Part shown: positions 10,513 to 32,971 of the stretch, one piece after another | Numbering within the stretch: the stretch's first letter is position 1 | Layout of the letters: each line of letters opens with the position of its first letter | Source: an uncultured Methanosarcinales archaeon | Lineage (GTDB): Archaea > Nanobdellota > Nanobdellia > Woesearchaeales > CALCXY01 | Length of the DNA stretch: 37,437 bases | Reading direction: 5' to 3' | Assembly (NCBI GenBank): GCA_964385185.1 | Contig: CAYLOA010000010.1 | Span: 1-37,437, forward strand | Position numbers and translations under genes: made by a program | Notes under the pieces: generated by a model | The model's database searches: none | Told to the model about the DNA's origin: nothing | What the model saw: only the letters and a program-made list of their open reading frames with translations

Positions 10513-10558
10513 TTAATACCGCTACTTTTTTATACTATATGAAGAACTAATATCATGT

Positions 10559-10632: not shown

Positions 10633-10687
10633 TGTTTCTTTTTTGTACCATTAACTTTATAAACGAAACAGCATCAAGGTAATCTAG

Positions 10688-13394: not shown

Positions 13395-13523
13395 AAAGTA
13401 AAGGTAATGGCTCGCTCAGCGACCCAACTCTCACGGCGCCTCATTAAAGTAGCGCCGTGAGTATAGTCATTTTTTCCAGCCATCACTACTGTGCCCTGTG
13501 GGCACCAGTAGTAGTGGTGGCTG
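13395..13523 (-). ncRNA. Unrecognised structured element, copy A
   Basis: Minus strand: CAGCCACCACTAC-TACTG-GTGCCC-ACA-GGGCAC-A-GTAGTGATGGCTG, then CTCACGGCGC/GCGCCGTGAG, then AGTTGGGTCGC-TGA-GCGAGCCA, then TTTACTTTT; covaries with copies B and C. Confidence 0.7.
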
Positions 13524-13569
13524 ATACAATTACATTAAATATATTATTAAGGATTTACTAAGAAATTAT

Positions 13570-14052
13570 TTACCAACTTTTTCTGAAATTATCTGTAGAT
13601 TGTGGCTCATGAGTTTGAGCTACTCGAGAAAGATTATCTAATTTAACATTTACTGCTTCAAGTGTTACTTTTAGCATGTCTAATTTTGCGGAAATAACTT
13701 CCATATTTTTATCTGCCATCTCATTATGTTGAAATGATTGTTGTTGAGGTGCAGCTGTAATTGGGGCTTGTCTTGGACCTTCTTGAAACGGATGTGATGG
13801 ACCTGGAGTTTCTGGTTCTGCACTTGCCATGCTTGGATCGGTATATTCTGTTTTTGGTAAACCTAAGTCGTCTTTCTTACCTGCACCGCCTAATGGATCT
13901 CCGGATGCTTCTAAACTGGGAATATTTACTCCGCTATCATTTGGAGGGAGCTCTCCTGCGCCAAGATCTTCTCCTGGAGGTGGACCTAAGTCTTTATCAA
14001 AATCAAACTCATCGTCTTTCTTCCAGAATTTTAACTTATCCATGACTCCCAT
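13570..14052 (-). CDS. Hypothetical protein (Pro/Asp-rich disordered region, C-terminal coiled segment)
   Basis: MGVMDKLKFWKKDDEFDF start, SD GAGGT, helix MEVISAKLDMLKVTLEAVNVKLDNL. Confidence 0.8.
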   Translation of the reverse strand: MGVMDKLKFWKKDDEFDFDKDLGPPPGEDLGAGELPPNDSGVNIPSLEASGDPLGGAGKKDDLGLPKTEYTDPSMASAEPETPGPSHPFQEGPRQAPITAAPQQQSFQHNEMADKNMEVISAKLDMLKVTLEAVNVKLDNLSRVAQTHEPQSTDNFRKSW

Positions 14053-14084
14053 AACCTCTATTTTGAAGAAGATAGTATTTAAAT

Positions 14085-14615
14085 TTAACTACTATCGTCA
14101 GATTCTTTGTCTTTCTTATTTTTTCTTTTGAACAGCTTTGAAAAGAATCCTTTCTTCTTTTGTTTTTGTTCTTCCTTCTCTAATTCTTCAAAAGGATCTT
14201 CCAAGCCGTCACAAATAAATACAGAATTTTTCTTATTGTAGGTGGGAACGATTGAAGGTGGTTTTACAAAACTGTAGGTGGTGGGTTTTGGATGGCTCTT
14301 TGAGTAAGTGGGTGGTGTGTAGCCTTGCATTGCTGTGGAGACTGCATCTTGGACTATTTCTGTTAATTTATGTTCTAATGATTCTGTTTCTGGCATTTTT
14401 GGGATTACTTGGATTCCTGTCTGTTTTATTTCAGGATGAAAACGATGGTATGCATGAGAAATAACTGTTTTTATTCCTGGATCAATTGCACTTGCATAGA
14501 ATACTCCACAGATAAATGCTGTGCTAAGAAATTTGTAACAACTATGTTTTACTCTCATGGATGTAGGGATGGTATAGGGAACTTGTTGATACATATCATC
14601 AATAGATTTTGGCAT
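14085..14615 (-). CDS. Hypothetical protein with one TM segment
   Basis: 176-aa ORF with upstream TATA-like box and C-terminal KKKGFFSKLF amphipathic motif. Confidence 0.65.
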   Translation of the reverse strand: MPKSIDDMYQQVPYTIPTSMRVKHSCYKFLSTAFICGVFYASAIDPGIKTVISHAYHRFHPEIKQTGIQVIPKMPETESLEHKLTEIVQDAVSTAMQGYTPPTYSKSHPKPTTYSFVKPPSIVPTYNKKNSVFICDGLEDPFEELEKEEQKQKKKGFFSKLFKRKNKKDKESDDSS

Positions 14616-14830
14616 AGTGTATATGAGATGTTATGTTTAATATGTCTTTGTTGATTTATTTGTAAAGAAATCCGGGCGTCTTGGAAATATTCATACACAG
14701 GGACTGAATTTTTTCGAAATCAAATCTGTATTTGAAAGATAATTTACAAATGACAAAAGAAATGTTAAAGTTAGACGAGAAAAAAATTACTTGGTTAAGA
14801 CTTATAAATTGAAGTTGATTCTTCTTTAAT

Positions 14831-15352
14831 ATGAGAAGACATAGATATGATAGATTTTTTCATAACTATCCTAGGAAAGAATATTTTCTTCCTCAGACTG
14901 AAGTAAAGAAATTACCTTATTTTAATGTGCTACAAATTTTACAAAAAAATCTTCATGAATGGGTACCTCATTTTCCTTCTCGTTATTGTGTGCAAACTAC
15001 TCGGTGTGCCAGCCGGTTAACTAGGCTCACAGAACTTGGAGGAAATTATGAATCATTTGCCCCAAAAATTCAAGGAGAGTATGAATTTCCAGTTCTAAAC
15101 TATCCACTTATTCGGTGGCATGCATGGAATTATGACAAACAAAGAGGATTGTATATTGATCTCAGTCACCATCAATGGAATAATAATTTACCTCAAATTA
15201 TGGTCTTTGAAGGAGATACAACTGTAATGGTTCCCAACAAATGGGACACCCGAAAACAAAAAAATTGTCGTTTATCTGATCAGTATAAGGCTCAGAAGTT
15301 CAAGACAGTTCTTCATAAATCAAGGAAGGAAATACGAAATCAGATGCGTTAA
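14831..15352 (+). CDS. Hypothetical protein
   Basis: 173-aa ORF, CTTATAAA box about 25 nt upstream. Confidence 0.65.
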   Translation: MRRHRYDRFFHNYPRKEYFLPQTEVKKLPYFNVLQILQKNLHEWVPHFPSRYCVQTTRCASRLTRLTELGGNYESFAPKIQGEYEFPVLNYPLIRWHAWNYDKQRGLYIDLSHHQWNNNLPQIMVFEGDTTVMVPNKWDTRKQKNCRLSDQYKAQKFKTVLHKSRKEIRNQMR

Positions 15353-15356
15353 ATAA

Positions 15357-16436
15357 TTACCTCTTCTTCAACTGTACAGGAGCTACCATTAAGATTGCTA
15401 ACAGAATAAAGACATAGGGAAGATAGATTACTGGGAAACTGAAGAACAATAACAGAGGAAGTATAATTCCATTCCACGTAATCGGCATACCAATGTAGAC
15501 TCCTTGGGCTTGCATGATATTAAACTTGGCTAGTCGTAAGATTCCACAGAGTAAGAAAATAGAAAACGCTATAATTGCAACTTTTGATTGGACTAATGTA
15601 AAACCAATCACGGCAGGAGCAACTCCAAAACTTACGGTGTCTGCCAATGAATCTAATTCTTTTCCAAAATCACTTTCTGTATGTGTTGCTCTCGCAACTT
15701 TTCCATCTAACATATCACAAACTACGGCAACGATAAGAAATACTAACGCTATTGTTAGATTATCTGAGATGGCAAAAATAACTGCTATAATTCCTGAGAG
15801 GACATTTGCTAATGTAAATAAATCTGCAGGTTTTAATAATTTTGTAAATGCAAAGTCATGATACAGTGTTGCTTTCTTTACAATCTTCACTTCTGGAGTG
15901 TAGAGTGCGTAGACAATGTTGAGCACTGTTAAGATTGATGCAGTCCAGAGCAAAATGATATCAGGTTTGTTAAATAAAATCACGATAAAAAATAATGATT
16001 GTGCGTATAATGTAATCTTACTTATGACAGAAGGTTTGAAAATTGTTGATTTGTAGGTAAAGAAAAGATATCCTTCTCTTAATATTGAGAGTACATCCTT
16101 TGCTATAAAAATTATGAATGCCCAGAGTGGCAGTAGATTCTGTTTGAACAACATTATGGAGACTAAAATAATTAAGAGTTTATCTCCAAAAGTGTTGAAT
16201 ATAGATTCGACAGGAGTTTTCAAGATCTTTTTTCTGTATCTGAAATAATCTACAAATCCTAGGCATAAGGTGATGATGAATAAAATTGTAGTTATGAATC
16301 GTTCTGGTTGTAATAATGAAACAGCCACAAAAATGGCAAGAATGATTCTTAGTAGGTAGATTGAGTAGTAAATAGATTCTTGTTTGTATTGATTTTTATA
16401 CGATTTTAATTTCTCTTTGAGTCGCAATTTGGTCAC
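15357..16436 (-). CDS. pssA: Two-domain CDP-alcohol phosphotransferase: degenerate PgsA-like N domain plus PssA-like C domain; start may be TTG 16427
   Basis: C domain has the full motif DMLDGKVARA...FGKELDSLADTVSFGVAP and LRLAKFN; N domain has FGDKLLI and SKITLYAQ remnants. Confidence 0.8.
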   Translation of the reverse strand: MTKLRLKEKLKSYKNQYKQESIYYSIYLLRIILAIFVAVSLLQPERFITTILFIITLCLGFVDYFRYRKKILKTPVESIFNTFGDKLLIILVSIMLFKQNLLPLWAFIIFIAKDVLSILREGYLFFTYKSTIFKPSVISKITLYAQSLFFIVILFNKPDIILLWTASILTVLNIVYALYTPEVKIVKKATLYHDFAFTKLLKPADLFTLANVLSGIIAVIFAISDNLTIALVFLIVAVVCDMLDGKVARATHTESDFGKELDSLADTVSFGVAPAVIGFTLVQSKVAIIAFSIFLLCGILRLAKFNIMQAQGVYIGMPITWNGIILPLLLFFSFPVIYLPYVFILLAILMVAPVQLKKR

Positions 16437-17010
16437 CTCCTCTTACTTTCTGACCAATATGCACTTGAAGTTTGTGTGTTGTTGGAATAATTAAGGTCAC
16501 TTGAGATCCAATGTCAATAAATCCTATTTTGTCACCTTTATGAATGTGAATATTCTTTTTTACATAACAATGAATTCTTCTGGCTAATACTCCTGCAATT
16601 TGGATGACCTTAGCTTTTGTTTTTCCTTCAATAAGAATTTGATTGTTTTCATTTTTCAAAATTGCTAACGTATTTGCCGAGACTGCGTTTGTAAATGTTC
16701 CTTTTTGATATTGAATAGAAGTTACTTTTCCTTTAATCGGTGCATATTGAAAATGAACATCTAAAGGTGTCATCATGATGGAAATAATGTAACATTCTTT
16801 CGCCACATCTTTGGTGAGTGTGTGTACTTTACCGAGCATACCTTTAGGAATTTCCGCCTTTTTTGTTGACTTGGTGATGTTCACAATCTTTCCATGTGTG
16901 GGAGAGATAATACCTTCATCAATATGGATGGGAGGATTTCTTTTGAAGACTAGGAAGTAGAATATGATTAAAAGTGCAATTACTCCAAGTAATGATGAGA
17001 TGATTCCCAT
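16396..17010 (-). CDS. psd: Phosphatidylserine/archaetidylserine decarboxylase proenzyme
   Basis: ISPTHGKI, MTPLDVH, NENN, IQIAG, self-cleavage motif IGSQV. Confidence 0.9.
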   Translation of the reverse strand: MGIISSLLGVIALLIIFYFLVFKRNPPIHIDEGIISPTHGKIVNITKSTKKAEIPKGMLGKVHTLTKDVAKECYIISIMMTPLDVHFQYAPIKGKVTSIQYQKGTFTNAVSANTLAILKNENNQILIEGKTKAKVIQIAGVLARRIHCYVKKNIHIHKGDKIGFIDIGSQVTLIIPTTHKLQVHIGQKVRGGDQIATQREIKIV

Positions 17011-17044
17011 AGAGATTTTGTTGTTTATTTGTATTTAAAGGTTG

Positions 17045-18824
17045 CTAGATTTCTTTAACATCTTGTAGAAAGTGGGTGATCTTATCACTTAAGACATCTA
17101 ACTTGTCATTTAGATTCATATTAAAACTTGCTCTTCGTACTTGTCTTAACCTATCCAACATCTGAGAAAATAATCGTATTAAATCTCCTTCTGATTGATT
17201 GGTTAAATCAATAATATCAAAGAAACTTCCTTTGTTGAAACAGGATTCAACCAAAGAAGCCATCTCAAACATATATCTAAATCTTTCATCGTCTTCGATA
17301 GCTCTCACTTTTCTTAACTTTCTTCTTAAGTCATGAGTCTTATTATGTTTCATAGGTTTGAAGAATTTATCTTTATCTTTAGGCTCATATGCTATCATAG
17401 CAAAGATAACTAAGATTTCATACTCTGTTAAAGAGTCGGCAAAGGTTGTGGCAAATATTTCAGCAGTCTCTACTTCATCTGCATAAATCTTAGAAGCGAA
17501 ATCTCCTTTCTCTGTCAATTTATCAGCTTTGATAAAACCTCTCGCCTTGAGTTTTTTTACCATGTTGTCAAATCGTAATTTCATGTCAACTTGAGTTTCT
17601 TGATACGCTAAAAAGGATTGTTTGAGGATTACTTTCATCTCTTCTTCTGAATGTAATTTTATCATATTCAAAACCGTGTTAATACTTAATCTAAATTGTG
17701 AATGGATCGGCATGACATCTGCTTGTGTTATTTTTTTGACTTTTCCATATTCAAACGTAGGAAGATGGACCATGGTTACTACTAATCCCTTTGTATCAAT
17801 TCCTCTTCTTCCTGCACGTCCTGCCATCTGGAAATATTCTTTAGTGTTGAGATATCTTAGAGAGTATCCGTCGAATTTCTTTAAGGAGTCAAAACAGACA
17901 GTTCTTGCTGGCATGTTAATCCCAACTGCAAAGGTTTCTGTTGTGTACAATACTTTGATTAATCCTTTTCCAAACAATTCTTCTACTATTTCTTTTAGAA
18001 TGGGGAGAAGACCAGCATGGTGAAATCCAATTTGATACGGTAAGATTTCTCGTAAAGCTTTTGTTGCTGAAATTTTATTAATATCAGAAGGTGCATTTTT
18101 TAATTTTTCTCTTACAAACGTTGCTATTTCTGGCTCATGTTTGAAGAACCTTTTTTGTGCTAATTCTATGGCTTTCTTTTGGCACGCTGCTCTTGAAAAA
18201 TTGAAAAATAATGCAGGAACTTTAGTTCCTAATGCTTTCACACATTCTGTATGATCGGGAGGATTTACTCTTTGTCTGGGACCTTTTCTTCTATGCTTGA
18301 ATGCCTGTTTGTATTCAGGAATACCCATTCTGTCATGGACTTTTTTTAGTTCCACAATGCCTAGTTCATTTTCAAAAAACATATGTTGAAGGGGGACGGC
18401 TCGTCTATGATGTTCTATTGTTTCTACTTTATGTTTCTTTATTTTGCAAATCCAGTCGGCAAACTCGGCAGCGTTTGGAATGGTTGCTGATAAGCAGAGA
18501 AATCTCACACTGGGAGGGGAGAAGATGATTGACTCTTCCCAAACATATCCTCTTTCTCTATCATTAATGTAGTGAATTTCATCGAAAACAACATAGTCTA
18601 CNNNNNNNNNNNNNNNNNNNNNNNNNNNNNNNNNNNNNNNNNNNNNNNNNNNNNNNNNNNNNNNNNNNNNNNNNNNNNNNNNNNNNNNNNNNNNNNNNNN
18701 NATAGTTTGCAATTAATGTTTTTCCGGATCCTGTTGGAGCGGAAACTACAACAGATTTACCGTCATCAATTGCATGGATAGAATCAACCTGGAATTTATC
18801 TAATGTTAAATGTAAGTATTGCAT
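17045..18824 (-). CDS. Ski2/HelY-like DEAD/DEAH-box helicase (spans assembly gap 18602-18701)
   Basis: APTGSGKT before the gap; DEIH, LSAT, FHHAGL, TETFAVGINMPA and QMAGRAGRRG after it. Confidence 0.9.
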
Positions 18825-18850
18825 AATTGATTAAGAGAAGAGGTTGTTTA

Positions 18851-19540
18851 TTAATGTAGGTATTTTTGTTGATACAAAATTGCAGCTTTAGCGACTGCAG
18901 GTGGTACTTTGGTTCTTGCTTGTGTTAATAATTTATTTACCACATTAGCTGTAGGATATAAATCAAAACGTTGAAATTTTTCAATTAACTTTTTTTCTGG
19001 AATTCCAAACATTCCAAGAAGGGTTAAAGTGTCCAAATATCCGAGCTGGGCAGGAATTGATGCATTGGCTTCTCCAAGTCTTGTGACTCTAGCGTCTTCA
19101 TTTGGAAATAGAGGTAATGATTCTGGTTTTGGTTCCCAAAAAATTCTTCCAGTATTATAATCTCCTTTGCCTTGATCTATTTGATCAGTATCATAATGGT
19201 TTAATTCAGATTGTACAAGATTCCATCTATCCTTGCATCTTTTGTGGAATGGTTTGTCCACAAATGAATCAAATGTATCTTCAATGGTACAAACAGTGGC
19301 ATAAAAAATTGTTGATTGTTTATTATTTTTCCTAGTGTGTGGAATTTGACCAGAGAAGTGCATATTTCTTGGTCCTTTATTTCCTCGCTGTTTGTCTACA
19401 CTAGGAACAATTTTGGCACAATCATCTCTCCTGTTTGGATTTCCATTACTGTTTGAAGAGATAACTCCGTTAAACATGATTGCATCGTCCATAAAATCTA
19501 TAAAATGAGCTAATGATGGAAAATTATATTTGAATACCAT
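18851..19540 (-). CDS. Hypothetical protein
   Basis: 229-aa ORF with TTTATAAA box upstream. Confidence 0.65.
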   Translation of the reverse strand: MVFKYNFPSLAHFIDFMDDAIMFNGVISSNSNGNPNRRDDCAKIVPSVDKQRGNKGPRNMHFSGQIPHTRKNNKQSTIFYATVCTIEDTFDSFVDKPFHKRCKDRWNLVQSELNHYDTDQIDQGKGDYNTGRIFWEPKPESLPLFPNEDARVTRLGEANASIPAQLGYLDTLTLLGMFGIPEKKLIEKFQRFDLYPTANVVNKLLTQARTKVPPAVAKAAILYQQKYLH

Positions 19541-19586
19541 GTTAGAATATAGACAATTTCACTCTTTATAAAGCTTATGTTTTTAA

Positions 19587-20132
19587 TTACTTGAGAGTAG
19601 TTACTTCAAAGCCATTACCAATGTTGATAGTTTTAGTATCATATTTGCCTACAAAGTCTCGATACTCTTCAGTTTCTTCTGGATGGGTAGAAATATTGTC
19701 AGCGATTACAATAGCATCTGGATTTAGTTTTAATAATACTGATTTAAAGATATTAATATATTGATCTTTACTGATATCAATAAAAACCAAGTCGAATTTC
19801 TCGTCTAAAGTGGGGATTACTTTCTGGCAAGAACCCCCTTGGAGTTGTATATTAGTAAGATTGCATTTTTTGAAGTTTTCTTCTGCAATCTTGTTTCTTT
19901 CTGCGTTGTTATCAACACCAATAATCTTTCCACCGGTCTCTGTTAATGCATCTGCCATGTAAATGGTTGAAAACCCATGAGATACTCCTAATTCAAGGAC
20001 ATTTTTAATGTTTTTTTCCTTGATTAATGTAGAAAGATACTCTCCTTGTTCAGCTGTTATAGGCCAGACGTTTCCTTTAGTTTTGGAAATAGTAGAGATA
20101 GCGTCTAAGACTGTCTGAATTGTAGAGTTCAT
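19587..20132 (-). CDS. SAM-dependent O-methyltransferase (YrrM/COMT-like)
   Basis: VLELGVSHGFST, FDLVFIDISK, IVIADN. Confidence 0.88.
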   Translation of the reverse strand: MNSTIQTVLDAISTISKTKGNVWPITAEQGEYLSTLIKEKNIKNVLELGVSHGFSTIYMADALTETGGKIIGVDNNAERNKIAEENFKKCNLTNIQLQGGSCQKVIPTLDEKFDLVFIDISKDQYINIFKSVLLKLNPDAIVIADNISTHPEETEEYRDFVGKYDTKTINIGNGFEVTTLK

Positions 20133-20137
20133 AAGAA

Positions 20138-20518
20138 TTACTTGATAAGAACTGCATTAATTGTACCGTGTTGTCCAGGTCGTGAAGTCACTTTAGCTTT
20201 TCCTGCTTCGGTTTCAATCTCAGCACCCTTAGTAATAATGTTTCTTCTTGCGAAGTGTCGTGAAGCTGGATTTCCAACAACGGATTTAATGACTGATTTA
20301 GTAGATTTCTTTGATTTAGGATCGTAAACGTTTGCAACATCTTGAGCTAGGAGTTTAACTTTTTCTGCTCCTCCACGAGTTCTTACTTTCAATACTTTTT
20401 CTTTAGCAAGTTTAGTTAATGCTGAAATTCCAGCTAACTCATACTTCCGTTTCTTTCTAGAAGCTGTGATCTTTCCACCTTGTGGTGAAGTCGTAGCTCT
20501 TAATTGTGATTTTGCCAT
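20138..20518 (-). CDS. rps8e: 30S ribosomal protein S8e
   Basis: RKKRKYEL, RTRGG, NIITKGAEIET..GKAKVTSRPGQHGTINAVL. Confidence 0.97.
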   Translation of the reverse strand: MAKSQLRATTSPQGGKITASRKKRKYELAGISALTKLAKEKVLKVRTRGGAEKVKLLAQDVANVYDPKSKKSTKSVIKSVVGNPASRHFARRNIITKGAEIETEAGKAKVTSRPGQHGTINAVLIK

Positions 20519-20633
20519 GATAAGGAGAGAATTCAGGTTGTTTTTAAAGGTTGTGTTTTTTTAGCTTTCATAGCAAACTTTATAAAGAATTGCATTAATC
20601 TTTCATCTATTATTGTTTGAGGGGTACTAAAAA

Positions 20634-20858
20634 ATGGAACAATCAAGACCGTTAGATGCTTTAAATGCTGCAAGAGATAAGAATGTCATTGTAGAACTAA
20701 AAAATGGTAAACAATACCTAGGAAAATTAAAAGCATTTGACATTCATATTAATGTTGTCCTAGAGGACGCAGAAGAAAGAGAGAACGGAGAGACTAAAAG
20801 AAAGTTAGGCGTAACCTTTTTACGAGGAGATGCTATTATTCTTGTAAGTCCAGCTTAA
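20634..20858 (+). CDS. Sm-like archaeal protein (Lsm/SmAP)
   Basis: RPLDAL...GKLKAFDIHINVVL...LRGD; adjacent to rpl37e. Confidence 0.95.
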   Translation: MEQSRPLDALNAARDKNVIVELKNGKQYLGKLKAFDIHINVVLEDAEERENGETKRKLGVTFLRGDAIILVSPA

Positions 20859-20867
20859 TTCTGAAAA

Positions 20868-21038
20868 ATGAGTAAAGGAACACCATCAATGGGAAAGAAG
20901 TCTGGTAAGACAACTCACCTACGATGTCGAAGATGCGGAGAGCATACTTTTCATAAGAAAAAGAAAAGATGTGCTAGCTGTGGATATGGAGATTCCTCTA
21001 AAACTCGAACATATAGTTGGAAGAAAGATAATAAATAA
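20868..21038 (+). CDS. rpl37e: 50S ribosomal protein L37e (not in ORF track)
   Basis: [41 protein letters not shown]. Confidence 0.96.
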
Positions 21039-21092
21039 AATTATAATTTCTGAAAATATCTTTTTGACGTCTTAATTTAGAACACTATAATT

Positions 21093-21932
21093 CTATTCTG
21101 TATTTCCCGTCCTAAACTCAGGAGGAAGATAGTTATCTGGAATGTCTAGATCATGTTCTGCAACAAGATGGAAGTTAGTCAAGGTATTTGTTTCAGAATC
21201 GACTAAAACTAAATCTAATACTCTTTCATAACAATTAATCCTGATTTGAATGATAGTAATAAGGTCACAATAATCTCGATTTCCTTCTAGCTGTGCCAAT
21301 TTCTTTCTACATTGACTATCTCGGTAGAAACCATCTTGGATAGATCGGCAACGATCAACATCTTTCTCTAGTAATGCAATATCTCTCATGCATCTGTGTC
21401 TTGTTGAGTCTGTAACAATTTTTTTACACAATTCAAAGTCATTTCTCGTCTTTTGGAGCTCGACAATACAATTATCTCTTAAATCTGCAAAACCAATACT
21501 TGAACATCGGTCTGTGTTGTTCATCTTGATTGAGATCTGCATCTGACAGACATCCAACCATCTTTCGTCTACGAATCGTAAGGTGTCACATAATACTGGT
21601 TCATTTCTTGCTAGTGCAATATCTGTAATGCAAGAACCATGCGTTTGATTTGTTAATAACTCACATAGTTTTGGTGCACCAGTTTCAACAGCAATTGAGC
21701 TTATACAATATTCTTTTAAGTCTATATTAGTCACGTCATTACACATCACTACGGATTGATTACCGATGGCATGATCTGCAACACATAATTGTCTTTCATA
21801 TTTATCTTTAAACTCAGAACAGGGTCCTGATGGAGTTGCCATATATATAATTGCAATTATAGCGACTAAAAGAATGATTATTCCGCCGAGTTTTAATGCA
21901 ACATTAGATGTTGGTTGTTTTTTTTCTGACAT
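21093..21932 (-). CDS. Membrane-anchored Cys-repeat surface protein
   Basis: N-terminal TM followed by repeated C-xx-I-x(5-6)-(R)D-x-C units. Confidence 0.8.
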   Translation of the reverse strand: MSEKKQPTSNVALKLGGIIILLVAIIAIIYMATPSGPCSEFKDKYERQLCVADHAIGNQSVVMCNDVTNIDLKEYCISSIAVETGAPKLCELLTNQTHGSCITDIALARNEPVLCDTLRFVDERWLDVCQMQISIKMNNTDRCSSIGFADLRDNCIVELQKTRNDFELCKKIVTDSTRHRCMRDIALLEKDVDRCRSIQDGFYRDSQCRKKLAQLEGNRDYCDLITIIQIRINCYERVLDLVLVDSETNTLTNFHLVAEHDLDIPDNYLPPEFRTGNTE

Positions 21933-22024
21933 TTATAGCTTGATGGCATGGGGGGTTTATATGTTTTATGGAAGTGAATTGTATAGAAATGTTTAAATAC
22001 ACACTGCATTCTTCAAATCAATGC

Positions 22025-22159
22025 GTGGAGATGCCGGAGTGGCCAAACGGGATAGATTGTTCCAAGAAATTGGATAAGTCCTAGCTTAGGTCGCCCAGGT
22101 GTGGGCGTAAGGTACCTATTGGCTTAGTGTCTACGGGAGTTCGAATCTTCCTCTCCACA
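22025..22159 (+). tRNA. tRNA-Leu(TAG) with two introns (22056-22083 at 30/31; 22091-22113 at 37/38)
   Basis: Acceptor GTGGAGA/TCTCCAC+A and long variable arm; removing both introns gives ATAGG-CTTAGGA-CCTAT; both junction pairs form bulge-helix-bulge motifs. Confidence 0.9.
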
Positions 22160-22204
22160 TCATTTTTCTTTTAATTTTTGTAGATCTGGAATAGTTGATG
22201 GCTG

Positions 22205-22320
22205 AGTCACCACTACTACCGGCATGCACAGCATGCAGTAGTGGTGATTGTGTCTTACTCTGAGGGCTCGCAGTCGTAAGACTGCGAGAGTTGGCACTCT
22301 GTGAGTGCCATTTTACTTTT
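22205..22320 (+). ncRNA. Unrecognised structured element, copy B
   Basis: AGTCACCACTAC-TACCG-GCATGC-ACA-GCATGC-A-GTAGTGGTGATT, then CTCGCAGTC-GTAA-GACTGCGAG, then AGTTGGCACTC-TGT-GAGTGCCA, then TTTTACTTTT. Confidence 0.72.
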
Positions 22321-22657
22321 ACTTACAGTGTTTTTAAGAAAATAGAACAAAAATAACTCACTTTTACCTAATGCCTAACTTAAATCTGTGATAGTTGGCT
22401 CATTTGCCTCAAAATACCCCTATTTTTGGGCTAAATGAGCACTCTTTATCAGATATATTATATAGTTGTAAAATTATACAGAAATACCGTAAAATGGAGC
22501 TAAAAATGAGTGTTTTTAAGAGGAGAACAATCATCCACAATAAACCGTGTGATGAAAATAAACTACTTAGTAGTGATAAAGTACTGAAGTTGTTGAATTC
22601 TAATAGTACAAGGCTTGTAGAGCAAAATACACCATATAATGGAGATAGTGCTTACGA

Positions 22658-22776
22658 AACCTTTATAAGTCAGTAGTTAACAAAGTAGTAGAATCAGCTC
22701 TCTCGCTGAACTTAGAGGCAAAACCCTAAGGAGAGCAGCTAGATAATAATAATCGAACAGACACGGAGGTGTTTAG
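22658..22776 (+). promoter_or_regulatory. S-layer gene promoter and structured 5' UTR of about 80 nt
   Basis: AACCTTTATAAG box; hairpin 22696-22740; SD GGAGGTG at 22765-22771. Confidence 0.65.
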
Positions 22777-25416: not shown

Positions 25417-25427
25417 GTCTAAAAAAC

Positions 25428-25470
25428 CTTTTTATTTTTTCTTTTTTTTTATTTTTTCTACTTTATTTTA
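25428..25470 (+). terminator. T-rich archaeal-type terminator of the S-layer gene
   Basis: Long T tracts just after the stop codon. Confidence 0.6.
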
Positions 25471-25520
25471 ACTGAACTTTAACAGAAAACTTTAAATACT
25501 ACTTTGTTTAAAAAAGAGCT

Positions 25521-26243
25521 ATGAAAAAGGTATTAATTCTACTATTATTGGTCTTAGTAGCCTGTGCAGTGCCAATTGAGCCTGCTGGAGGCGATAATGT
25601 ACAAGATACTACACCTGAACCTACTCCTATAGAGATAGAGACTCAGGAAGAGATTGTGGAGACTTCACCTACCGTTGTAGATTCTATTGACGAGGATGTC
25701 AAGCAATTACTAGGCAGAATGGGTAATATTCAATCATATTCTTATCATGATACGAGAGGTACCTTAGATACGTTCCATATACGAGGAGATATGGTGAGAA
25801 TAGACTTACATAATCAAAAACAATACAATGAATTATATTCATATGATACTGTTCTATGGGATCGAAGCTCAGGAAGTGTTTTGGGCTACTGTACTGATTC
25901 TGGATTTTGTGACGCAAGAGCTAGAGAAGTGTATTTTGAAGTTAAATATCCTGCAAAAGGAACTATCTTGGATGCTTTAGGTATTGCTGATGACTGGGTA
26001 AGTGCACACTTTACAGGATCTACTGAACAATTAGATAGAACTCAAGTCAGAGAGGTTGCATTTAAATTGAGTGCTACTAAAAACGGAACTGCATTATTAG
26101 ATAATTATTACGGAGTTCCCCATGTTATTCAGTACTATGAAAGTGGAAACCCTACAGATAGAATTGAATTTACTAGTTTAAAGATTGATACTGTAAAGGA
26201 AAAAGATATGAGTATAGATTCTGATTTTACTAAGATAGATTAA
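25521..26243 (+). CDS. Putative lipoprotein
   Basis: MKKVLILLLLVLVA-C lipobox-like signal. Confidence 0.75.
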   Translation: MKKVLILLLLVLVACAVPIEPAGGDNVQDTTPEPTPIEIETQEEIVETSPTVVDSIDEDVKQLLGRMGNIQSYSYHDTRGTLDTFHIRGDMVRIDLHNQKQYNELYSYDTVLWDRSSGSVLGYCTDSGFCDARAREVYFEVKYPAKGTILDALGIADDWVSAHFTGSTEQLDRTQVREVAFKLSATKNGTALLDNYYGVPHVIQYYESGNPTDRIEFTSLKIDTVKEKDMSIDSDFTKID

Positions 26244-27196
26244 AGAGCTTTAGCATAATAAAAGTTATGTGAGGCTTTCATGATTTTTACTTTAGCTATT
26301 CCAAATCTTTTTGCGTTGTAGACAATAATACATTTATCTTTGTAGATAGCTATTTTTTCATTCTCGTATTTTGAGTCCATTATAATATTGGCTTCTATCA
26401 CTTGTCCTCTTTTTGCAACTTTTGGTAGACTGGGTGTTTTAATGAGTTTGTCTACTTTGATTAACTTCATATTGAATTTAGTTTCAAGTTCTTGTAGATG
26501 TTTATAGAACTTTTTGAAAGGTACTGATGATACTGGATTTCTTCCTCGTCTATTTTTACAAAAGTTTTGTATGGATATTTCTGCTCCAATTTCTTTTGCA
26601 AAATTGACTATAGATTCTATCTCCTGTTCGTTTGTATTCTTCATGTAAACAGGTGTTAATACTAACTCTAATTGTTTAGCTGCGTATGTACATACTCTTC
26701 TTATTTTTTCAATATTGTATGCTTTTAATCCTGCAAGTTCTGCAGCTTTTTCGTTGGTGAAAGCGTTCATGCTTAATGATATTTGAGTTAATCCTGCTTC
26801 TTTGTAGTCGTCTATCTTCTTTTCGCTTAGTAATAGTCCGTTGGTGATTATGATTATCTTATTTACATGTTTTATTTTTCTGCAATCTTTGATTAAGGGA
26901 ATAAGATCGGGATATACTGTTGGATCTCCTTGTGGATTGATCCAGATATCCATCTTTGAGTCTTTGAATTCTACTATTTTTTTTATTTCTTCTGCTAGGT
27001 AGGATTCTTCGACGACAAAATCAGTTTTATATGTTGCTTTCGGACCTGCATTAACACTACAGAATGTGCAATTGATGTTACATAATGTTGTAGGTCTTAC
27101 TTCTAAGATATTTGTATTTCTATCTAAGACTCCAAAGTACATGGTGCCCATTAATGGGATACCTGATTTCTTTGTTATGTTTATTACATTTCGCAT
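26240..27196 (-). CDS. Radical SAM protein with C-terminal TRAM-like domain (COG2100-like)
   Basis: GIPLMG..FGVLDRNTNILEVRPTTLCNINCTFCSV (CxxxCxxC), ITNG. Confidence 0.85.
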   Translation of the reverse strand: MRNVINITKKSGIPLMGTMYFGVLDRNTNILEVRPTTLCNINCTFCSVNAGPKATYKTDFVVEESYLAEEIKKIVEFKDSKMDIWINPQGDPTVYPDLIPLIKDCRKIKHVNKIIIITNGLLLSEKKIDDYKEAGLTQISLSMNAFTNEKAAELAGLKAYNIEKIRRVCTYAAKQLELVLTPVYMKNTNEQEIESIVNFAKEIGAEISIQNFCKNRRGRNPVSSVPFKKFYKHLQELETKFNMKLIKVDKLIKTPSLPKVAKRGQVIEANIIMDSKYENEKIAIYKDKCIIVYNAKRFGIAKVKIMKASHNFYYAKAL

Positions 27197-27235
27197 AGAA
27201 ACTATAGGTTTGAGTGGGTATAAAAAGGTTCAGTT

Positions 27236-27904
27236 TTAGCCAGATTTTTTGATGGGGACAAATTTAATTCCTGTACCTAATTTCCTCGTACTTATTTTAC
27301 CTGGCTCTTTCTTTCCATACACTAAACAGCTATTAGGATTACAAGGATAGATGAATATTCCACCTTCATTTAGCTGAGTTCCTAGTTCTATATCTGGATA
27401 ATTCAAAGATACATAAGAAGCTGCAATAGTAATTCTATCATACGGTTGATTTCGAGGATATCCTTTAGAACCATCAGCACAGATTACTTCTATACCGTCT
27501 AATGTTCCAAAATGATTCCTTAAATTACTTTCTCCGAAATGTGCTAGTACTGGATCAAATTCTACGGTTGTAAGATGACCATCTCCTATTAATGTTTTTA
27601 CAAGGGCCTCAAAATATCCTGAACCTGTTCCTACAGTAAGGACTGACATCCCTTCCTTTAATTCTAAAGCATCCGCTAAGTATGCTACCATAGATGGCTG
27701 TGAGCAAGTGGATTGATGTTGCTCAATATTATGTGTTAATCTCAAGGGTGTATCTCTGTATGCAGATTCTTTTTGAAATTCAGGTAGAAAATTAGCTCGA
27801 TCAATTCCTTTTAATGCTTCTAACACTTTAGGATCTCTTGACGATTTTAATTCTAGGTAAAAAGGGTGCGTTGCAATTCTCTCTATTAAGGTATCATTGT
27901 CCAT
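27236..27904 (-). CDS. pcm: Protein-L-isoaspartate O-methyltransferase
   Basis: AYRDTPL, STCSQPSMVA, VGTGSGY, DGSKGYP..QPYDRI. Confidence 0.88.
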   Translation of the reverse strand: MDNDTLIERIATHPFYLELKSSRDPKVLEALKGIDRANFLPEFQKESAYRDTPLRLTHNIEQHQSTCSQPSMVAYLADALELKEGMSVLTVGTGSGYFEALVKTLIGDGHLTTVEFDPVLAHFGESNLRNHFGTLDGIEVICADGSKGYPRNQPYDRITIAASYVSLNYPDIELGTQLNEGGIFIYPCNPNSCLVYGKKEPGKISTRKLGTGIKFVPIKKSG

Positions 27905-27986
27905 ACATAGGGTATTTGTGAGGTGTTTATAGGGTTATTGTTCTTTAATCATAAACTTTATAAGGAATCTCAGTTCTCATTATTGT

Positions 27987-28736
27987 ATGACTGTGCCTAA
28001 AGTATTAATCGGATGTCCCACCTTTATTGGTAAAAAGTATTGTATCAATAAATACCTTAATGGGATTCAAGATTTAGATTATGACGAGAAGTATTTTACT
28101 ATTGTAGATAATTCTAAAGATGATGAATATCTAAAATTGCTTAAGAGTAAAGGAATAACAGCAGTAAAAGGTCCTCACTATCCAGATGATCCTGCTCGAT
28201 CCGTATTAGAGAGTAGAAATATGTTACGAGATAGATTTTTGAAAGGGGATTTTGAATATTTTCTTTCATTAGAGCAAGATGTAGTCTTGCCCAAAGATGG
28301 ATTGAAGAAATTAATGGAAAACAATCAACGAGTTACGAGTGCTGTGTATTTTGCATTAACAGATGTGAATAATAAACCTGCAATGGCTCCTATGGCATTT
28401 GTTAAAGTAGATAAAGAATGGTTTGATAAGATTAAAAATAATCCTAAGAAGTACAAAGATCAATATGAAATGTTAAAAAAACATGACTTTGATATTGAGA
28501 AAGTTGTTAGACGATTGAGATTACCAGAAGTTACGGGTGAGAAAACTATTGAAGTCAATCGAGTTGGATTGGGTGCTATGTTAATACACAGAGATGTCAT
28601 GGAGAAGATTAAATTTCGTAAAAATCCTAACGGTTTTGATGATATGACTTTTTGTGAAGATGTTCTTAAGAATAATTGGAAATTGATATTAGATACGGGT
28701 GTTAAATGTCAACACTTTTTAGAAGAAGGAGATTAA
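27987..28736 (+). CDS. Glycosyltransferase (GT-A/GT2-like)
   Basis: VLIGCPT, IVDNS, YFLSLEQDVV, GLGAMLIHRDV, DDMTFC. Confidence 0.8.
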   Translation: MTVPKVLIGCPTFIGKKYCINKYLNGIQDLDYDEKYFTIVDNSKDDEYLKLLKSKGITAVKGPHYPDDPARSVLESRNMLRDRFLKGDFEYFLSLEQDVVLPKDGLKKLMENNQRVTSAVYFALTDVNNKPAMAPMAFVKVDKEWFDKIKNNPKKYKDQYEMLKKHDFDIEKVVRRLRLPEVTGEKTIEVNRVGLGAMLIHRDVMEKIKFRKNPNGFDDMTFCEDVLKNNWKLILDTGVKCQHFLEEGD

Positions 28737-29647
28737 CAGTCTAATTTTGCTAATAATTTTGTAGACCAATCATGTCCAAATTTATGGTGTCCATAGAGTA
28801 TTAATCCTCCGTGTGCTGGTGGACAGAATTGATTTGGCTTAGCTTGGGAGAGGTAATCAAATAAAGGTCCCTCAGTTGAAGGGATGAAGGTAACATCTGC
28901 TACGTCTGGAGGGATTTCTTCTGGCTTTCTTTTGTCTATTCTGTCTTTTACTGTAGTTGAGTCAACGTTGATCCATGTTGATCCCATTAATCCTGGTTGA
29001 TTTGGAAATCTTTCCTGATCTCCTACAATTCCATAAAACTCCATCATTCTTAGGTCATGCTCTCTCTTATTTACCTGAATTTCCTCATTTAATTCACCTT
29101 GTTGATGACGTGCAACAGATTGCTTAGTTGTTTCTGGACATCCTCCTACACCATATTTCCTTCCACCATATACAGTTGTATCTCCTCGGACAGTTAAAAT
29201 GAATTGATCGTCAGAAGTAATAGGAAAGGTACAGATGGCCATTGGAGGAGTTGGTAACTCTATTGCAGCGAACCTATACGCTTGTTGGATTTTGTGATCT
29301 GTTAATGCAGCAAGATATGGATATGAAATTTTTCCTACCCACAACTATAATTTTCCTCCCCTATATTCAGTACTTCTCAAAGTTAAACCTTGACCTGGCC
29401 ATTTTTTTAATCGCTCTCCTTGATAGAGTGCATTCAAACCGGTTGTATCATTATAGGGCCTTATTGCTGTTTCTATTCCTGTTTCCTTTAATTCAGTCTG
29501 TAGAGCGAGTAACTGAGACTCCCAATGATTAGCCACAGCTCTATCAACACTTTCTGCTGAACGGGTGTATGCATCTCTCCACTCAATTTTATTTGCCATT
29601 ATGGGCGCATCAAATACTGATACAGCATTCCAATACTGCGTTTTCAT
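28733..29647 (-). pseudogene. NUDIX-fold (NUDT22-like) gene interrupted by one in-frame TAG at 29345-29347
   Basis: ORFs 29345-29647 and 28733-29344 are in the same frame and abut exactly: ...RGGKL*LWVGKISY...; no SD for the second part. Confidence 0.6.
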
Positions 29648-29691
29648 AGAAAAAAGGAGTTTATTGGTGTATTTAAAGATGTGGTAAATTA

Positions 29692-30063
29692 TTATTTTTG
29701 TTGATTTTTTGCGAAATATTGTTTGATTTCATGTTCTAAAACAATTCCTCTCGTAGGGGGATTAACTTTATCCTTTTGACTCGGTTCGTTCAATAAAAGT
29801 CTAGAACTTCCTTTTGCGACCCATTTCTCTACACTCATCGATTCGTGTGATCCTCGTGCCAGTTCCTTTAGAATTAATTTACCTTGTGGATCTACTCCTG
29901 TTACTTTAAAATAAGGAGGTACTCCAGCAATATAATCTTGAGGTTCTCCATATGAATTAGCACCTCTTGTCCGATGCTTCCTAGTCGTATGAATAGCATA
30001 AAAGTCACAGGGTTTTCCTTGTGTATTGTGTCTCATTGCATGAGGTAAGGCTATATAGTCCAT
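29692..30063 (-). CDS. Hypothetical protein
   Basis: 123-aa ORF with TTTAAAAA box about 25 nt upstream. Confidence 0.6.
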   Translation of the reverse strand: MDYIALPHAMRHNTQGKPCDFYAIHTTRKHRTRGANSYGEPQDYIAGVPPYFKVTGVDPQGKLILKELARGSHESMSVEKWVAKGSSRLLLNEPSQKDKVNPPTRGIVLEHEIKQYFAKNQQK

Positions 30064-30155
30064 AGTGTTTGGAACTTTCCTTACATTTTTAAACTTTTGT
30101 ATGGTCTGTACTCAACTCAACTTCCTAAATGTTTAAAAACATCAACTTGTTCTAG

Positions 30156-30875
30156 ATGTGTATGAGTGAAACTGATGAAGTTCCTGTGGATATTGAACCG
30201 AAGAATGAGACAGAGAATTTGCAAGTTAAATTTGCTGATAAAGGGAAAACTCTCAATATAACTATTCAAACTATTCAAGATTTAACTCGGACCGAATCTA
30301 CAAGGACTGAGTTGCAAACATTAGATAAGACATTCTTTGGTGATTTAGTGGGATACATCAATGAAAAGAAGGCATTGGTCAATGTTAAAGGAGGAGATGA
30401 CCTCTTTAGTTCTACTGAAAAAGAGAATACTAAACTTCAGCTTGATAATATTCAACATTTACTTGATAAGTTGTATGATAAAAGAGAACGGAAGATCATC
30501 AATATGGCTATTGATAAAAGTAGGGTAGGAGATACCTTGATTGATACTTCTATTATGTTAGAAGAAGAGAAAGAATTATTTGTCCAAGTGGGTGCTGTAT
30601 TAGAGAAATTTAGGCAAAATATTCTCTGGAATATTAAAGCAGGGAAATTGCCTACAGTAATTACTCAGGAAATGGAAACAGTTATTCCAGATGTTAAAAA
30701 ACAAGATGGACCTTTGATATTAGTTCGGTTCTTGTCTGCTGTGCCTAAATTCGTAGGTAAGAACTTGGAAACCATAGGACCTTTTGAAGAAGAAGACGTT
30801 GCTAACCTTTCTAAAGAGGTAGCAGATGTACTTATTTCTAAGGGAAGAGCTGAAAAGATTGATGAAGGTATGTAA
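30156..30875 (+). CDS. GINS complex protein (Gins51/15-like)
   Basis: Helical A domain (RERKII) plus B domain VRFLSAVPKFVG...GPFEEEDVANL; directly upstream of rpl44e as in many archaea. Confidence 0.85.
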   Translation: MCMSETDEVPVDIEPKNETENLQVKFADKGKTLNITIQTIQDLTRTESTRTELQTLDKTFFGDLVGYINEKKALVNVKGGDDLFSSTEKENTKLQLDNIQHLLDKLYDKRERKIINMAIDKSRVGDTLIDTSIMLEEEKELFVQVGAVLEKFRQNILWNIKAGKLPTVITQEMETVIPDVKKQDGPLILVRFLSAVPKFVGKNLETIGPFEEEDVANLSKEVADVLISKGRAEKIDEGM

Positions 30876-30913
30876 GCATAACATTTATAAAGAGTTTAGG
30901 ACTTCTATAAGCT

Positions 30914-31225
30914 ATGAAAATACCTAAAATCATGAAGAGATTGTGTCCTAAGTGTAGAAAGCACACTGAGCAAAAGGTAACACAAGCTAAGAATAGAACA
31001 CCTGGATCCGCACGACCTATGGGACGATATTCTAAAGCTAGAACAGGCTTTGGTAAAGGACATGGAAATCTAGGAAGATATGGTTCTAAACCTCCTGTTG
31101 GACGATGGAAGATGACAGGTGCTAAAGGTTCTAAAAAGATGGATTTACGATACGAATGTAAAGAATGTAAGAAAATCTCTGTTCAAAAGAAAGGTAAAAG
31201 AGCAAAGAAAGTTGAATTTAAGTAA
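30914..31225 (+). CDS. rpl44e: 50S ribosomal protein L44e
   Basis: MKIPK..KRLCPKCRKHT...SKKMDLRYECKECKK. Confidence 0.95.
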   Translation: MKIPKIMKRLCPKCRKHTEQKVTQAKNRTPGSARPMGRYSKARTGFGKGHGNLGRYGSKPPVGRWKMTGAKGSKKMDLRYECKECKKISVQKKGKRAKKVEFK

Positions 31226-31270
31226 TTCTATAGACATAAATTTATATTCTTGAAGTGATTAACAACTTTT

Positions 31271-32050
31271 ATGAGTAGTTTAGGATTTGTTACAGAAGTG
31301 GCTAGAGGAGCTGCATTAATTACGCAGAGAGATTTTGCATCTGGAGATTATACAATTGAATGTGTGGATGGAAAGAATGTCACCTCTACTGAATTAGAGA
31401 TTGCTAAAATGGTTGAAGATCAGGTTGGCTTATCAAAATGTCACAAGGCTGACATATTAAATGAAGATACTTCGAATACTCCTTTAGAGGGTTCTTATTG
31501 GATTGTAGATAATATTGACGGGACTGAAAACTTTGTACATGGTCTTACACCATTCAGTTTTGCTATGGCTAAAATTGAAAATAAAGTTACTAAAGCTGCT
31601 GCAGTATATGATCCTATACGTGATCATTTATACGTTGCTTGTAATGAAAGCAATGCTCAGTTGAATGGAAAAGATATTCATGTTTCAGATACGACTCAAT
31701 TAGATAATGCTGTAATTGGATTTGATACACTAATGAGTACTGAAGAAGCTCGGAAACGAGGGGTAGAAGCATTTGGTGCCCTAGTTTGTGCTGAAGTGAG
31801 TGTGAGAAAATATAATTCTGCAGCTTTGGATATATGTAAAGTTGCTGCAGGAAATTTGGATGGTTATGTCTGTCCTAACAAAGGTTATTTTTCTCCTTGG
31901 GACTTTATTGCTGCTGGATATATCTTAGAGAGAGCTGGTGGGAAGTTAACAAATTTTCAAGATACATGGAAAGGTGTAGAATTAGAAGATAGATTGGCTA
32001 GTAATGGTGTTTTACATGATGAATTATTAGAAGTGGTTAAAGTAATTTAA
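31271..32050 (+). CDS. Inositol monophosphatase family protein
   Basis: WIVDNIDGTENF, SAALDICKVAAG, PWDFIAAG. Confidence 0.88.
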   Translation: MSSLGFVTEVARGAALITQRDFASGDYTIECVDGKNVTSTELEIAKMVEDQVGLSKCHKADILNEDTSNTPLEGSYWIVDNIDGTENFVHGLTPFSFAMAKIENKVTKAAAVYDPIRDHLYVACNESNAQLNGKDIHVSDTTQLDNAVIGFDTLMSTEEARKRGVEAFGALVCAEVSVRKYNSAALDICKVAAGNLDGYVCPNKGYFSPWDFIAAGYILERAGGKLTNFQDTWKGVELEDRLASNGVLHDELLEVVKVI

Positions 32051-32754
32051 TCCAAATGAATACTATGTTCTATGGTGCCTACGATTAAAGCAACGATTGC
32101 TAACATAATAAATGCAGAAAGTCCTGTTGGTGTGAATAACATTCTTCGAAAAGGATCAGCTGAGAAGGTAACTCTTCCAGAAGGAGGTTGGTAATTAAAA
32201 TTGTCTATTTGTACAACTCCTCCTGTGATTGCATCTCTATTTAATAAAATATCATCAATGGATTCAAACTTTTGAACAACTTTATCGGGATCACCTACGG
32301 TGATAAATCCCCTAGCACCATAGATAGCTTCTTGACAAAGATATTCTCCATCTTCTGTGAATGTGAATGAGAATGATTCTCCTGGGAAGAAGTTTTCTGA
32401 TTTCAGGAATCTGTTTGGTCCTCTGTAACAAGCAATTAAAAACATTTTAGAATCGTCCGCATGAGTCCAAGTTACTTTAGTTCCTTTTTCGATGGTAATA
32501 TCGGGTTGATCATATTTTCCCCAGTAGGTGTTGATATTGATGTCTGTTGAAACAGGTTCTAATTGTGTTGGCTCTGTTTCAACTTCAGTTGGTTCTACTG
32601 GTTCTTCAATAGCTACTAATGGTTTTGGATATTCTTTATTCATCGTTTCTTCTGAAGCTGGTAAGCTTATGAAAATCATAATTGCTGCTATAACTACAGC
32701 CAAAATAACAAAATGGAATTTAGAAGCGTGATGAGGCTTTTGAATAGTAGGCAT
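32047..32754 (-). CDS. Membrane-anchored cupredoxin-fold protein
   Basis: N- and C-terminal TM; ITIEKGTKVTWT...PGESFSFTFTEDGEYLC. Confidence 0.75.
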   Translation of the reverse strand: MPTIQKPHHASKFHFVILAVVIAAIMIFISLPASEETMNKEYPKPLVAIEEPVEPTEVETEPTQLEPVSTDININTYWGKYDQPDITIEKGTKVTWTHADDSKMFLIACYRGPNRFLKSENFFPGESFSFTFTEDGEYLCQEAIYGARGFITVGDPDKVVQKFESIDDILLNRDAITGGVVQIDNFNYQPPSGRVTFSADPFRRMLFTPTGLSAFIMLAIVALIVGTIEHSIHLD

Positions 32755-32823
32755 AAGTCTATTTTGAGATTAAGTGTATATAAAGTTTTGGATTAAGTTT
32801 TGTGAATAGGTAAATAGTGTTGT

Positions 32824-32971
32824 AGACAGCACCACCACCGGCACCCACAGGGTGCAGTGGTGCTGTCTGATACAATGCCCACTGGGCGTTGCCCTTACAT
32901 TTCCAGCTACTGGTCTGGAAATGTAGATGGGCTGGCTCACTGTGTGAGCCTGCAAGCTCAGTGGGATTGTA
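32824..32971 (+). ncRNA. Unrecognised structured element, copy C (extended, multibranch)
   Basis: AGACAGCACCAC-CACCG-GCACCC-ACA-GGGTGC-A-GTGGTGCTGTCT; enclosing stem 32871-32892/32952-32971 around TACATTTCCAG/CTGGAAATGTA and GGCTGGCTCAC-TGT-GTGAGCC. Confidence 0.7.

Follow-up and report, generated by a model that had tools for sequence, protein, structure and literature searches.

Three GC-rich intergenic islands, here called copies A, B, and C, share one hairpin architecture in a 37,437-base stretch of archaeal DNA (contig CAYLOA010000010.1 of GenBank assembly GCA_964385185.1; 35.1% GC), which is referred to as the window. The copies follow a common plan: a bulged hairpin of 47 nt (P1) comes first, then a hairpin that differs from copy to copy (P2), and last a short one (P3). 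Tentatively, and with a confidence that stops just short of even, we read them as a lineage-specific, composite palindromic repeat of Woesearchaeota (DPANN archaea) that is similar to bacterial repetitive extragenic palindromic (REP) sequences and bacterial interspersed mosaic elements (BIMEs) and would be recognized as a folded single strand. The elements resemble a new small-RNA gene no more closely than they do a REP-type palindromic DNA repeat. A first-pass annotation of this DNA had named two candidates, an undescribed class of non-coding RNA (ncRNA) and a non-autonomous element read as hairpins of single-stranded DNA (ssDNA); the evidence leaves this choice undecided and leans slightly to the ssDNA-hairpin element.

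Architecture and covariation of the three copies

The three P1 hairpins align without gaps over 47 columns, of which 29 are invariant. The outer stem of each is 13 bp long and is separated by a 5-nt YACYG bulge, which faces a single A, from a 6-bp inner stem; an ACA triloop on a closing C-G pair caps the hairpin. In copy A (whole element 13395..13523, -), P1 lies at 13477..13523 (-) and has a UACUG bulge and one C.A mismatch in the outer stem; its inner stem pairs GTGCCC with GGGCAC. P1 of copy B (whole element 22205..22320, +) occupies 22204..22250 (+), with a UACCG bulge and the inner stem GCATGC/GCATGC. P1 of copy C (whole element 32824..32971, +) occupies 32823..32869 (+), with a CACCG bulge and the inner stem GCACCC/GGGTGC. 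A covariance model of P1 scores the hairpins of A, B, and C at 72.6, 70.5, and 72.3 bits, respectively. In copies A and B, a pair between the opposite A and the first base of the bulge is possible and would shorten the bulge to 4 nt.

Standard pairs fill 96.5% of the 57 cells given by 19 P1 pairs in three copies. Compensatory double changes occur in seven of the 19 pairs (four of six in the inner stem and three of 13 in the outer stem), and these pairing and covariation values were reached by none of 500 shuffles. When the 3′ partners were slid by 1-3 columns as a control, at most 58% of the cells were paired and at most one pair covaried. The first-pass description of three GC-rich intergenic islands of one architecture, with this P1 plan, four compensatory changes in the inner stem, and further swaps in the outer stem, therefore stands after the structure was re-read. 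Selection on a folded molecule, which had also been proposed, is supported, since the P1 stems covary while the bulge and loop bases are fixed. Under every explanation considered below, selection acts on a single strand in folded form whose bulge and loop bases are fixed, and a candidate protein that reads these bases is the most economical inference.

The P1 core pattern, allowing up to two mismatches, has exactly three sites in the window (A, B, and C) and none in 100 shuffles. The P1 covariance model, run on both strands of the window with filters off, detected no additional P1. Its top other match, at 19419-19467 (-), reaches 16.2 bits (E 0.016) at 37% GC inside ORF 18851-19540; it shows no P1 features on reading and was rejected as chance. 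Repeats of 3 nt (CAC/CTA/CCA units) make up the 5′ strand of the outer stem in P1, and a slipped register is possible. These triplets hint at a slippage-type length change that preserves pairing.

P2 forms a near-perfect hairpin in each copy and cannot be aligned across copies. It is a GC-rich hairpin of 10-11 bp in A (13430..13461, -), a 9-bp hairpin with a 4-nt loop in B (22267..22288, +), and a long hairpin in C (32891..32932, +). In copy C, P2 and P3 are enclosed by an extra 10-bp outer helix, in which 32878-32887 pairs with 32956-32965, so that a three-way junction results. P3 is a 7-bp hairpin with one G.G mismatch and a UGA triloop in A (13406..13432, -), an 8-bp hairpin with a UGU triloop in B (22286..22312, +), and a 7-bp hairpin with a UGU triloop in C (32926..32953, +). 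The P3 pattern given earlier, RGYTGG-N4-C-TGW-G-N4′-CC, was confirmed, including the single G.G mismatch of copy A. Over seven pairs, P3 is 95.2% paired and shows double changes in two of them; this covariation alone is not significant, as it was reached by 27-49 of 500 shuffles. The loop-to-loop distances between P1 and P3 (A, 81; B, 72; C, 94 nt) agree with those first given. The GC fraction of the core is 0.53-0.57 (53-57% GC) versus 0.28-0.37 in the 200-nt flanks and 0.35 in the whole window. Copy A runs P1-linker-P2-P3-tail, and its tail ends in a T6 run. The tails of A (13395-13408) and B (22310-22330) have in common a U-rich motif with repeated UUAC. Through pairing that includes G.U, this motif could compete with the P2 base for the 3′ strand of P2, a possible structural switch; the likeness of the two tails is borderline, 3-5% of background trials matching it.

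Inverted hairpins and a relative outside the window

P3 resembles the P1 tip in inverted orientation. In the alignment, the three P3 hairpins read on the opposite strand and the three P1 tips share the design GG-N4-C-(A/T)CA-G-N4′-C; the likeness is apparent in the reverse complement of P3 of copy A and again in copy C. With a model built from P1 only, the opposite strand of P3 of copy B is the best non-self local match (13.4 bits, E 0.12, in 37 kb on both strands), and that of copy C, at 9.8 bits, is among the best non-self matches. A model of all six tips assigns 28.8-34.9 bits to P1 on the element strand and to P3 on the other strand, and at most 10.6 bits to the reverse orientations; the six tips are the training rows of this model, and the orientation contrast alone is informative. 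No tip beyond these six was found in the window with the tip model. Thus, an element amounts to two hairpins, the second inverted relative to the first, with a spacer between them. The P1 and P3 loops of B and C (CACAG and CUGUG, as read on the element strand) are complementary.

Both strands of the elements fold equally well. Fold z-scores are -5.6 to -7.9 for the element strand, where none of 200 shuffles was as stable, and -5.6 to -8.3 over both strands. The energies of the element and opposite strands are -62.0 and -61.1 kcal/mol for A, -57.2 and -52.6 kcal/mol for B, and -83.1 and -81.1 kcal/mol for C, and the element strand is more stable by 0.9, 4.6, and 2.0 kcal/mol, respectively. On reading, no complement to the P1 bulge that could form a pseudoknot was found in the rest of the element, and P1 and P3 contain no G.A tandem of the kind expected in a kink-turn (K-turn).

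In a scan of 185,579 species genomes, 13 sites matched the strict P1 core pattern, 12 of them bacterial and one in Haloarcula. All are attributed to chance, because none of the 13 has complementary inner arms. The absence of the strict core from these genomes fits a narrow, lineage-specific repeat and argues against an RNA class that spans DPANN archaea and the candidate phyla radiation (CPR). A blastn search of copy B against phage and plasmid collections returned no match.

In each of the three copies, P1 is crossed by an antisense reading frame that stays open, and peptides of this frame were used to seed an alignment search and a profile search in protein space. The alignment search yielded one protein, P0121, among 8000 scored candidates. 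The profile search, which covered 1.84 billion representatives, yielded P0121 and P0122, the latter of which was rejected as an unrelated tandem-repeat protein. P0121, an 84-residue metagenome ORF, is the sole true match of both searches, and a search with its residues 40-84 recovered P0121 itself only. Back-translation indicates that residues 51-58 can encode a sense P1 core with a single codon solution and the inner stem of copy A, and that residues 73-80 can encode an antisense P1 core, at a distance of 43 nt from the first, whose inner stem differs and is self-complementary. Applied to 121 control proteins (31,447 residues), this back-translation found no match. The two P1 cores of P0121 thus place the family on at least one other contig. 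Going from protein to DNA for this one ORF, that contig would carry two full P1 units in inverted orientation at approximately the P1-P3 spacing. The P0121 instance is apparently short of one triplet per strand relative to copy A. The known instances are the three copies and the one deduced from P0121, so the earlier expectation of more copies elsewhere is borne out weakly, by a single outside ORF.

A REP-like repeat and the competing explanations

A REP/BIME-like repeat is favored by the inverted arrangement of P1 and P3, the inverted P1 cores in P0121, the equal folding of the two strands, and a density of three copies per 37.4 kb (~80 per Mb). The absence of the strict core from species representatives and the varied contexts of the copies (behind a gene, behind a tRNA, and between divergent genes) also speak for it. 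Bacterial REP sequences, BIMEs, and REPINs (REP doublets forming hairpins) appear to be the closest analogues, and the hairpin family works most like a REP/BIME unit. Excerpts of PMC3733652 describe bacterial REP families with 5-13-bp stems, very short loops, and sub-families that differ by complementary stem changes. According to the same excerpts, REPs form inverted dimers mostly 20-100 bp apart and lie mostly behind genes, with some nested in other palindromes (PMC3733652). Compared with that partial account, the elements are likewise GC-rich, intergenic, short-loop hairpins with fixed unpaired or tag bases and complementary stem sub-families, and they likewise pair inverted units tens of bases apart at high density within one lineage. 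As in the GTAG/CGTC REPs, inverted units with complementary stem changes stand 20-100 bp apart (P1 and P3 at 72-94 nt).

In the mechanism that we propose, the 47-nt P1 would be the repeat unit, and P3, which is shorter and inverted but has the same tip design, would follow 72-94 nt on, with P2 in between. The hairpins would be recognized as folded single strands, either as ssDNA during replication or repair or, where transcription runs through them, as RNA. A recognizing protein, encoded elsewhere, would read the fixed unpaired YACYG bulge, the ACA loop, and the CAC/GTG top of the stem, and would require pairing, not sequence, in the remaining stem. Such a reading of unpaired bases would explain the fixed loops with freely covarying stems, the inverted units, and the dispersed intergenic occurrence at ~80 per Mb. 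Transcribed copies may form stable RNA hairpins at transcript ends, as suggested by copy A, which lies 46 nt behind a co-oriented gene and before the T6 run. We infer protein recognition, copying or mobility, and any RNA-level effect from the sequence.

Several points weigh against a REP-like repeat. The GTAG/CGTC tag of REPs is unpaired, and the hosts listed in excerpts of PMC3733652 are all bacteria. The host of the elements is archaeal, and the GTAG of A and B and the GTGG of C, which come after the inner hairpin, are paired to CTAC/CCAC within the outer stem (columns 10-13 and 35-38), leaving no free tag; membership in the GTAG/CGTC REPs was rejected on this ground. Unlike a REP, the unit is also longer (47 nt) and carries a 5-nt bulge, and the paired units are unequal (P1 long, P3 short) with a unique hairpin always between them. 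REPINs and REP-associated tyrosine transposases (RAYTs) are stated to be absent from archaeal genomes in part of the text of 10.1101/2022.05.22.493013, and passages of PMC6006769 give the IS200-type as the only Y1 subclass in 172 archaeal genomes. A REPIN-RAYT system has a cognate RAYT (Y1 HUH) gene in the genome, usually with the repeats on either side of it. Among the ORFs of the window, no Y1/HUH, RAYT, transposase, or integrase domain was found; the gene of a recognizing transposase could be single-copy elsewhere in the genome. No target-site duplications or flanking direct repeats were seen when the flanks of the three copies were read by eye, and neither the P1 model nor the tip model detected a solitary P1 or P3 unit in the window.

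The remaining points against the repeat are also those that recommend the next explanation, in which the elements are a family of small (~110-150 nt) structured ncRNA genes with their own promoters, P1 being the protein-binding module of a ribonucleoprotein (RNP) and P2 a variable arm. This, the first candidate of the first-pass annotation, is a possible account, though on the doubtful side. It is favored by stems that covary around fixed unpaired bases. Despite strong divergence between the copies, every stem is near-perfect in every copy, which looks like selection on each copy and not like the decay of dead copies. The order P1-P2-P3 is kept in all three. In the minimum-energy folds, G.U pairs number 9 of 136 on the element strand versus 2 of 125 on the opposite strand, a mild bias towards the element strand, which is also the better folded one (by 0.9-4.6 kcal/mol). 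An A/T-rich box with TTAA stands 27, 33, and 30 nt ahead of P1 in A, B, and C. Every copy (3/3) is co-oriented with the next downstream gene, T-runs follow A and B but not C, and the LSM and Nop10 genes indicate that RNP machinery is present. Additionally, S27e, the gene downstream of copy C, has its own TATA-like box ~30 nt before the start codon, and copy C is therefore not the leader of the S27e mRNA.

However, RNA genes offer no reason why a 3′ hairpin should be the reverse complement of the tip of its own 5′ hairpin, and two full inverted P1 units in a relative (P0121) would be unexpected. The equal folding of both strands and the missing T-run of copy C also count against RNA genes. Flank similarity (50 nt upstream and 43 nt downstream, by local alignment) did not rise above the AT-rich background; the best pairs, B-C upstream and A-B downstream, were reached by 6% and 3% of background trials, respectively. 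With ~80 copies per Mb, a family of RNA genes would be very dense for a small genome, and no true match was found in the 185,579 species genomes or in Rfam. The fuller claim of an undescribed ~110-150-nt structured RNA class in Woesearchaeota, with dozens of copies per genome, P1 docking a dedicated protein, and P2 giving each paralogue its identity, strikes us as rather unlikely.

Known RNA classes do not account for the elements, in line with the first-pass statement that no known family matches. At gathering threshold, Rfam 15 detected only tRNA-Arg in the whole window and nothing in the elements. At E ≤10, the best match inside an element, in a scan of elements and flanks, was a miRNA hairpin model with 27.5 bits against a gathering score of 80. 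tRNA and transfer-messenger RNA were rejected, as the single ARAGORN gene (10558-10633) and the Rfam tRNA matches (10559-10632 and 22025-22159) all lie outside the elements. Archaeal guide small RNAs (sRNAs) are comparable in being multi-copy small-RNA genes with fixed protein-binding motifs and a variable remainder, and Nop10 is encoded 1.1 kb from copy C. In box C/D sRNAs, box C (consensus RUGAUGA) lies close to the 5′ end and is brought together, as a K-turn, with box D, which lies close to the 3′ end. None of the 17 exact box C matches of the window falls in an element, and CUGA occurs at non-homologous places, so this class was rejected. In H/ACA sRNAs, the pseudouridylation pocket is two-sided and lies below a K-turn or K-loop, and an ACA directly follows the lower stem on its 3′ side. 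This class was rejected as well, since the P1 internal loop is 5x1 (or 4x0) with no two-sided pocket and no G.A tandem. The ACA of the elements is a hairpin loop and does not follow the lower stem; the 3′ tails of A and C are without ACA, and that of B has one, 17 nt past P3. Unlike archaeal guide sRNAs, the elements thus have no box C, consistent box D, K-turn, pseudouridylation pocket, or 3′ ACA, and their variable parts are paired and are not single-stranded guides.

A third explanation, which we regard as improbable, takes the elements for cis-acting RNA structures of neighboring transcripts, either 3′-end stabilizers or terminator clusters or 5′ leaders that regulate the downstream gene. 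The ORFs on either side of copy A are co-oriented and of unknown function; the copy begins 46 nt past the stop of the upstream one and ends in T6, as would suit a 3′ structure. A scan for bacterial-type promoters and terminators gave no terminator site around it. Copy B follows a tRNA gene with a 55-nt intron, starting 45 nt downstream of it, but a T5 run intervenes. Copy C lies upstream of the S27e-eIF2alpha-Nop10-PAC2 row and cannot belong to a 3′ untranslated region, since it stands between divergent genes. The shared orientation of all three copies with the downstream gene would be compatible with leaders. However, the downstream genes (an unknown 174-aa protein, the S-layer protein, and S27e-eIF2alpha-Nop10) have no common function, and TATA-like boxes separate the element from the start codon at at least two of them.

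A classical MITE (miniature inverted-repeat transposable element), that is, an insertion-sequence derivative formed by deletion that has terminal inverted repeats and flanking target-site duplications, is very improbable: the elements are small, do not code for protein, and occur in several intergenic copies, their P1 outer stem forms an inverted repeat of 13 bp, and many MITE-Tracker calls exist in one Woesearchaeal genome (according to parts of PMC11602168), but A and B lack end-to-end pairing, the inverted repeats are local to each hairpin and not element-wide, no flanking direct repeats were seen by eye in the three copies, and no transposase fragment was found among the window ORFs. In that genome, MITE-Tracker called 105 elements per Mb, among the highest archaeal densities in the excerpted text (PMC11602168), and its set is likened to the elements by density and host group alone. 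The family is filed under neither the GTAG REPs nor the MITEs, because the defining features of each are lacking.

Other mobile or selfish elements offer looser parallels. The ends of IS200/IS605 and their miniature derivatives also carry subterminal hairpins that are read as folded ssDNA, as proposed here, and make no target duplication. Both end hairpins of IS200/IS605 lie on the same strand in the same sense, whereas P1 and P3 are inverted, and no tnpA or tnpB is nearby. Integron attC sites have paired core sites of fixed consensus at the foot of the hairpin, at cassette ends, with an integrase nearby. They were rejected, as the elements are ~10 kb apart between housekeeping genes (tRNA, S-layer, and S27e-eIF2alpha-Nop10) and no integrase domain occurs among the window ORFs. 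In AT-rich organelle genomes, such as that of Volvox, GC-rich self-complementary palindromic clusters are scattered as selfish DNA through intergenic regions; their hosts and sequences are unrelated to those of the elements, and the likeness is one of description only.

Genomic setting and significance

The gene content of the window is archaeal and includes eIF1A, S8e, L44e, Gins51, PAC2, an S-layer protein, Alba, ArgRS, carbamoyl-phosphate synthase, and an intron-bearing tRNA. The closest named relatives of its eIF2alpha are from Candidatus Woesearchaeota, with a top non-self match of 81% identity. The three copies are intergenic and are overlapped by short, unsupported ORFs only. For these ORFs (98, 74, 45, and 34 aa), no family match was found, and one of them clashes with S27e. 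PDB sequence searches with three of the unknown neighboring proteins gave no matches (3/3 tried).

The tRNA gene ahead of copy B (22025-22159, +) looks class II and contains the 55-nt intron; it scores 33.3 bits with the Rfam tRNA model against a gathering score of 29, and it was found by the local E-value scan only, having been missed by the whole-window gathering scan and by ARAGORN. Near copy C, S27e, eIF2alpha, Nop10, and PAC2 form a tight row (33044-33223, 33223-34002, 34058-34228, and 34225-35007, all +), of which the two small genes fall below the 80-aa limit of the ORF listing. The interval between L44e (30914-31225) and S27e holds an inositol monophosphatase gene, a membrane-like ORF of 235 aa on the opposite strand, and copy C. 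An apparent intergenic gap of 575 nt is occupied by the LSM (Sm-like) gene (20634-20858, +) and the gene of ribosomal protein L37e (20868-21038, +).

Two runs of exactly 100 N (18602-18701 and 37279-37378) are presumably scaffold gaps. The first lies inside ORF 17045-18712, and the model of this Ski2-like DSHCT helicase gene is therefore incomplete. Signal peptidase II (lipoprotein signal peptidase; PF01252, E 5.5e-37) is encoded at 11806-12237 (-), which is unusual for archaea. The window also encodes a ParE-like toxin (6096-6350, +) with no obvious antitoxin called, an Sso10a-like winged-helix protein (5403-5687, +), and Alba (10234-10512, +).

The inversion of P3, the equal folding of both strands, and the inverted P1 cores of P0121 are new here, and the family is in no Rfam entry. 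No description of it was found in the literature on DPANN ncRNA covariation, Woesearchaeota structured RNA, or Woesearchaeota MITEs. Whether the elements are a REP-like repeat or RNA genes, either would, if true, be new for DPANN archaea. RNA genes would constitute a new multi-copy RNA class, and with it an RNP system, in organisms with tiny genomes, where the retention of any non-coding element calls for an explanation. Should the elements be REP/BIME-like, a REP-type hairpin repeat would exist in a domain from which the REPIN-RAYT system has been reported absent, which would imply an unknown hairpin-recognizing enzyme. Such a repeat could further account, at the level of sequence, for the very high count of miniature repeats in the Woesearchaeal genome. 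The P1 covariance model provides a ready probe with which the family can be counted and mapped in metagenomes.

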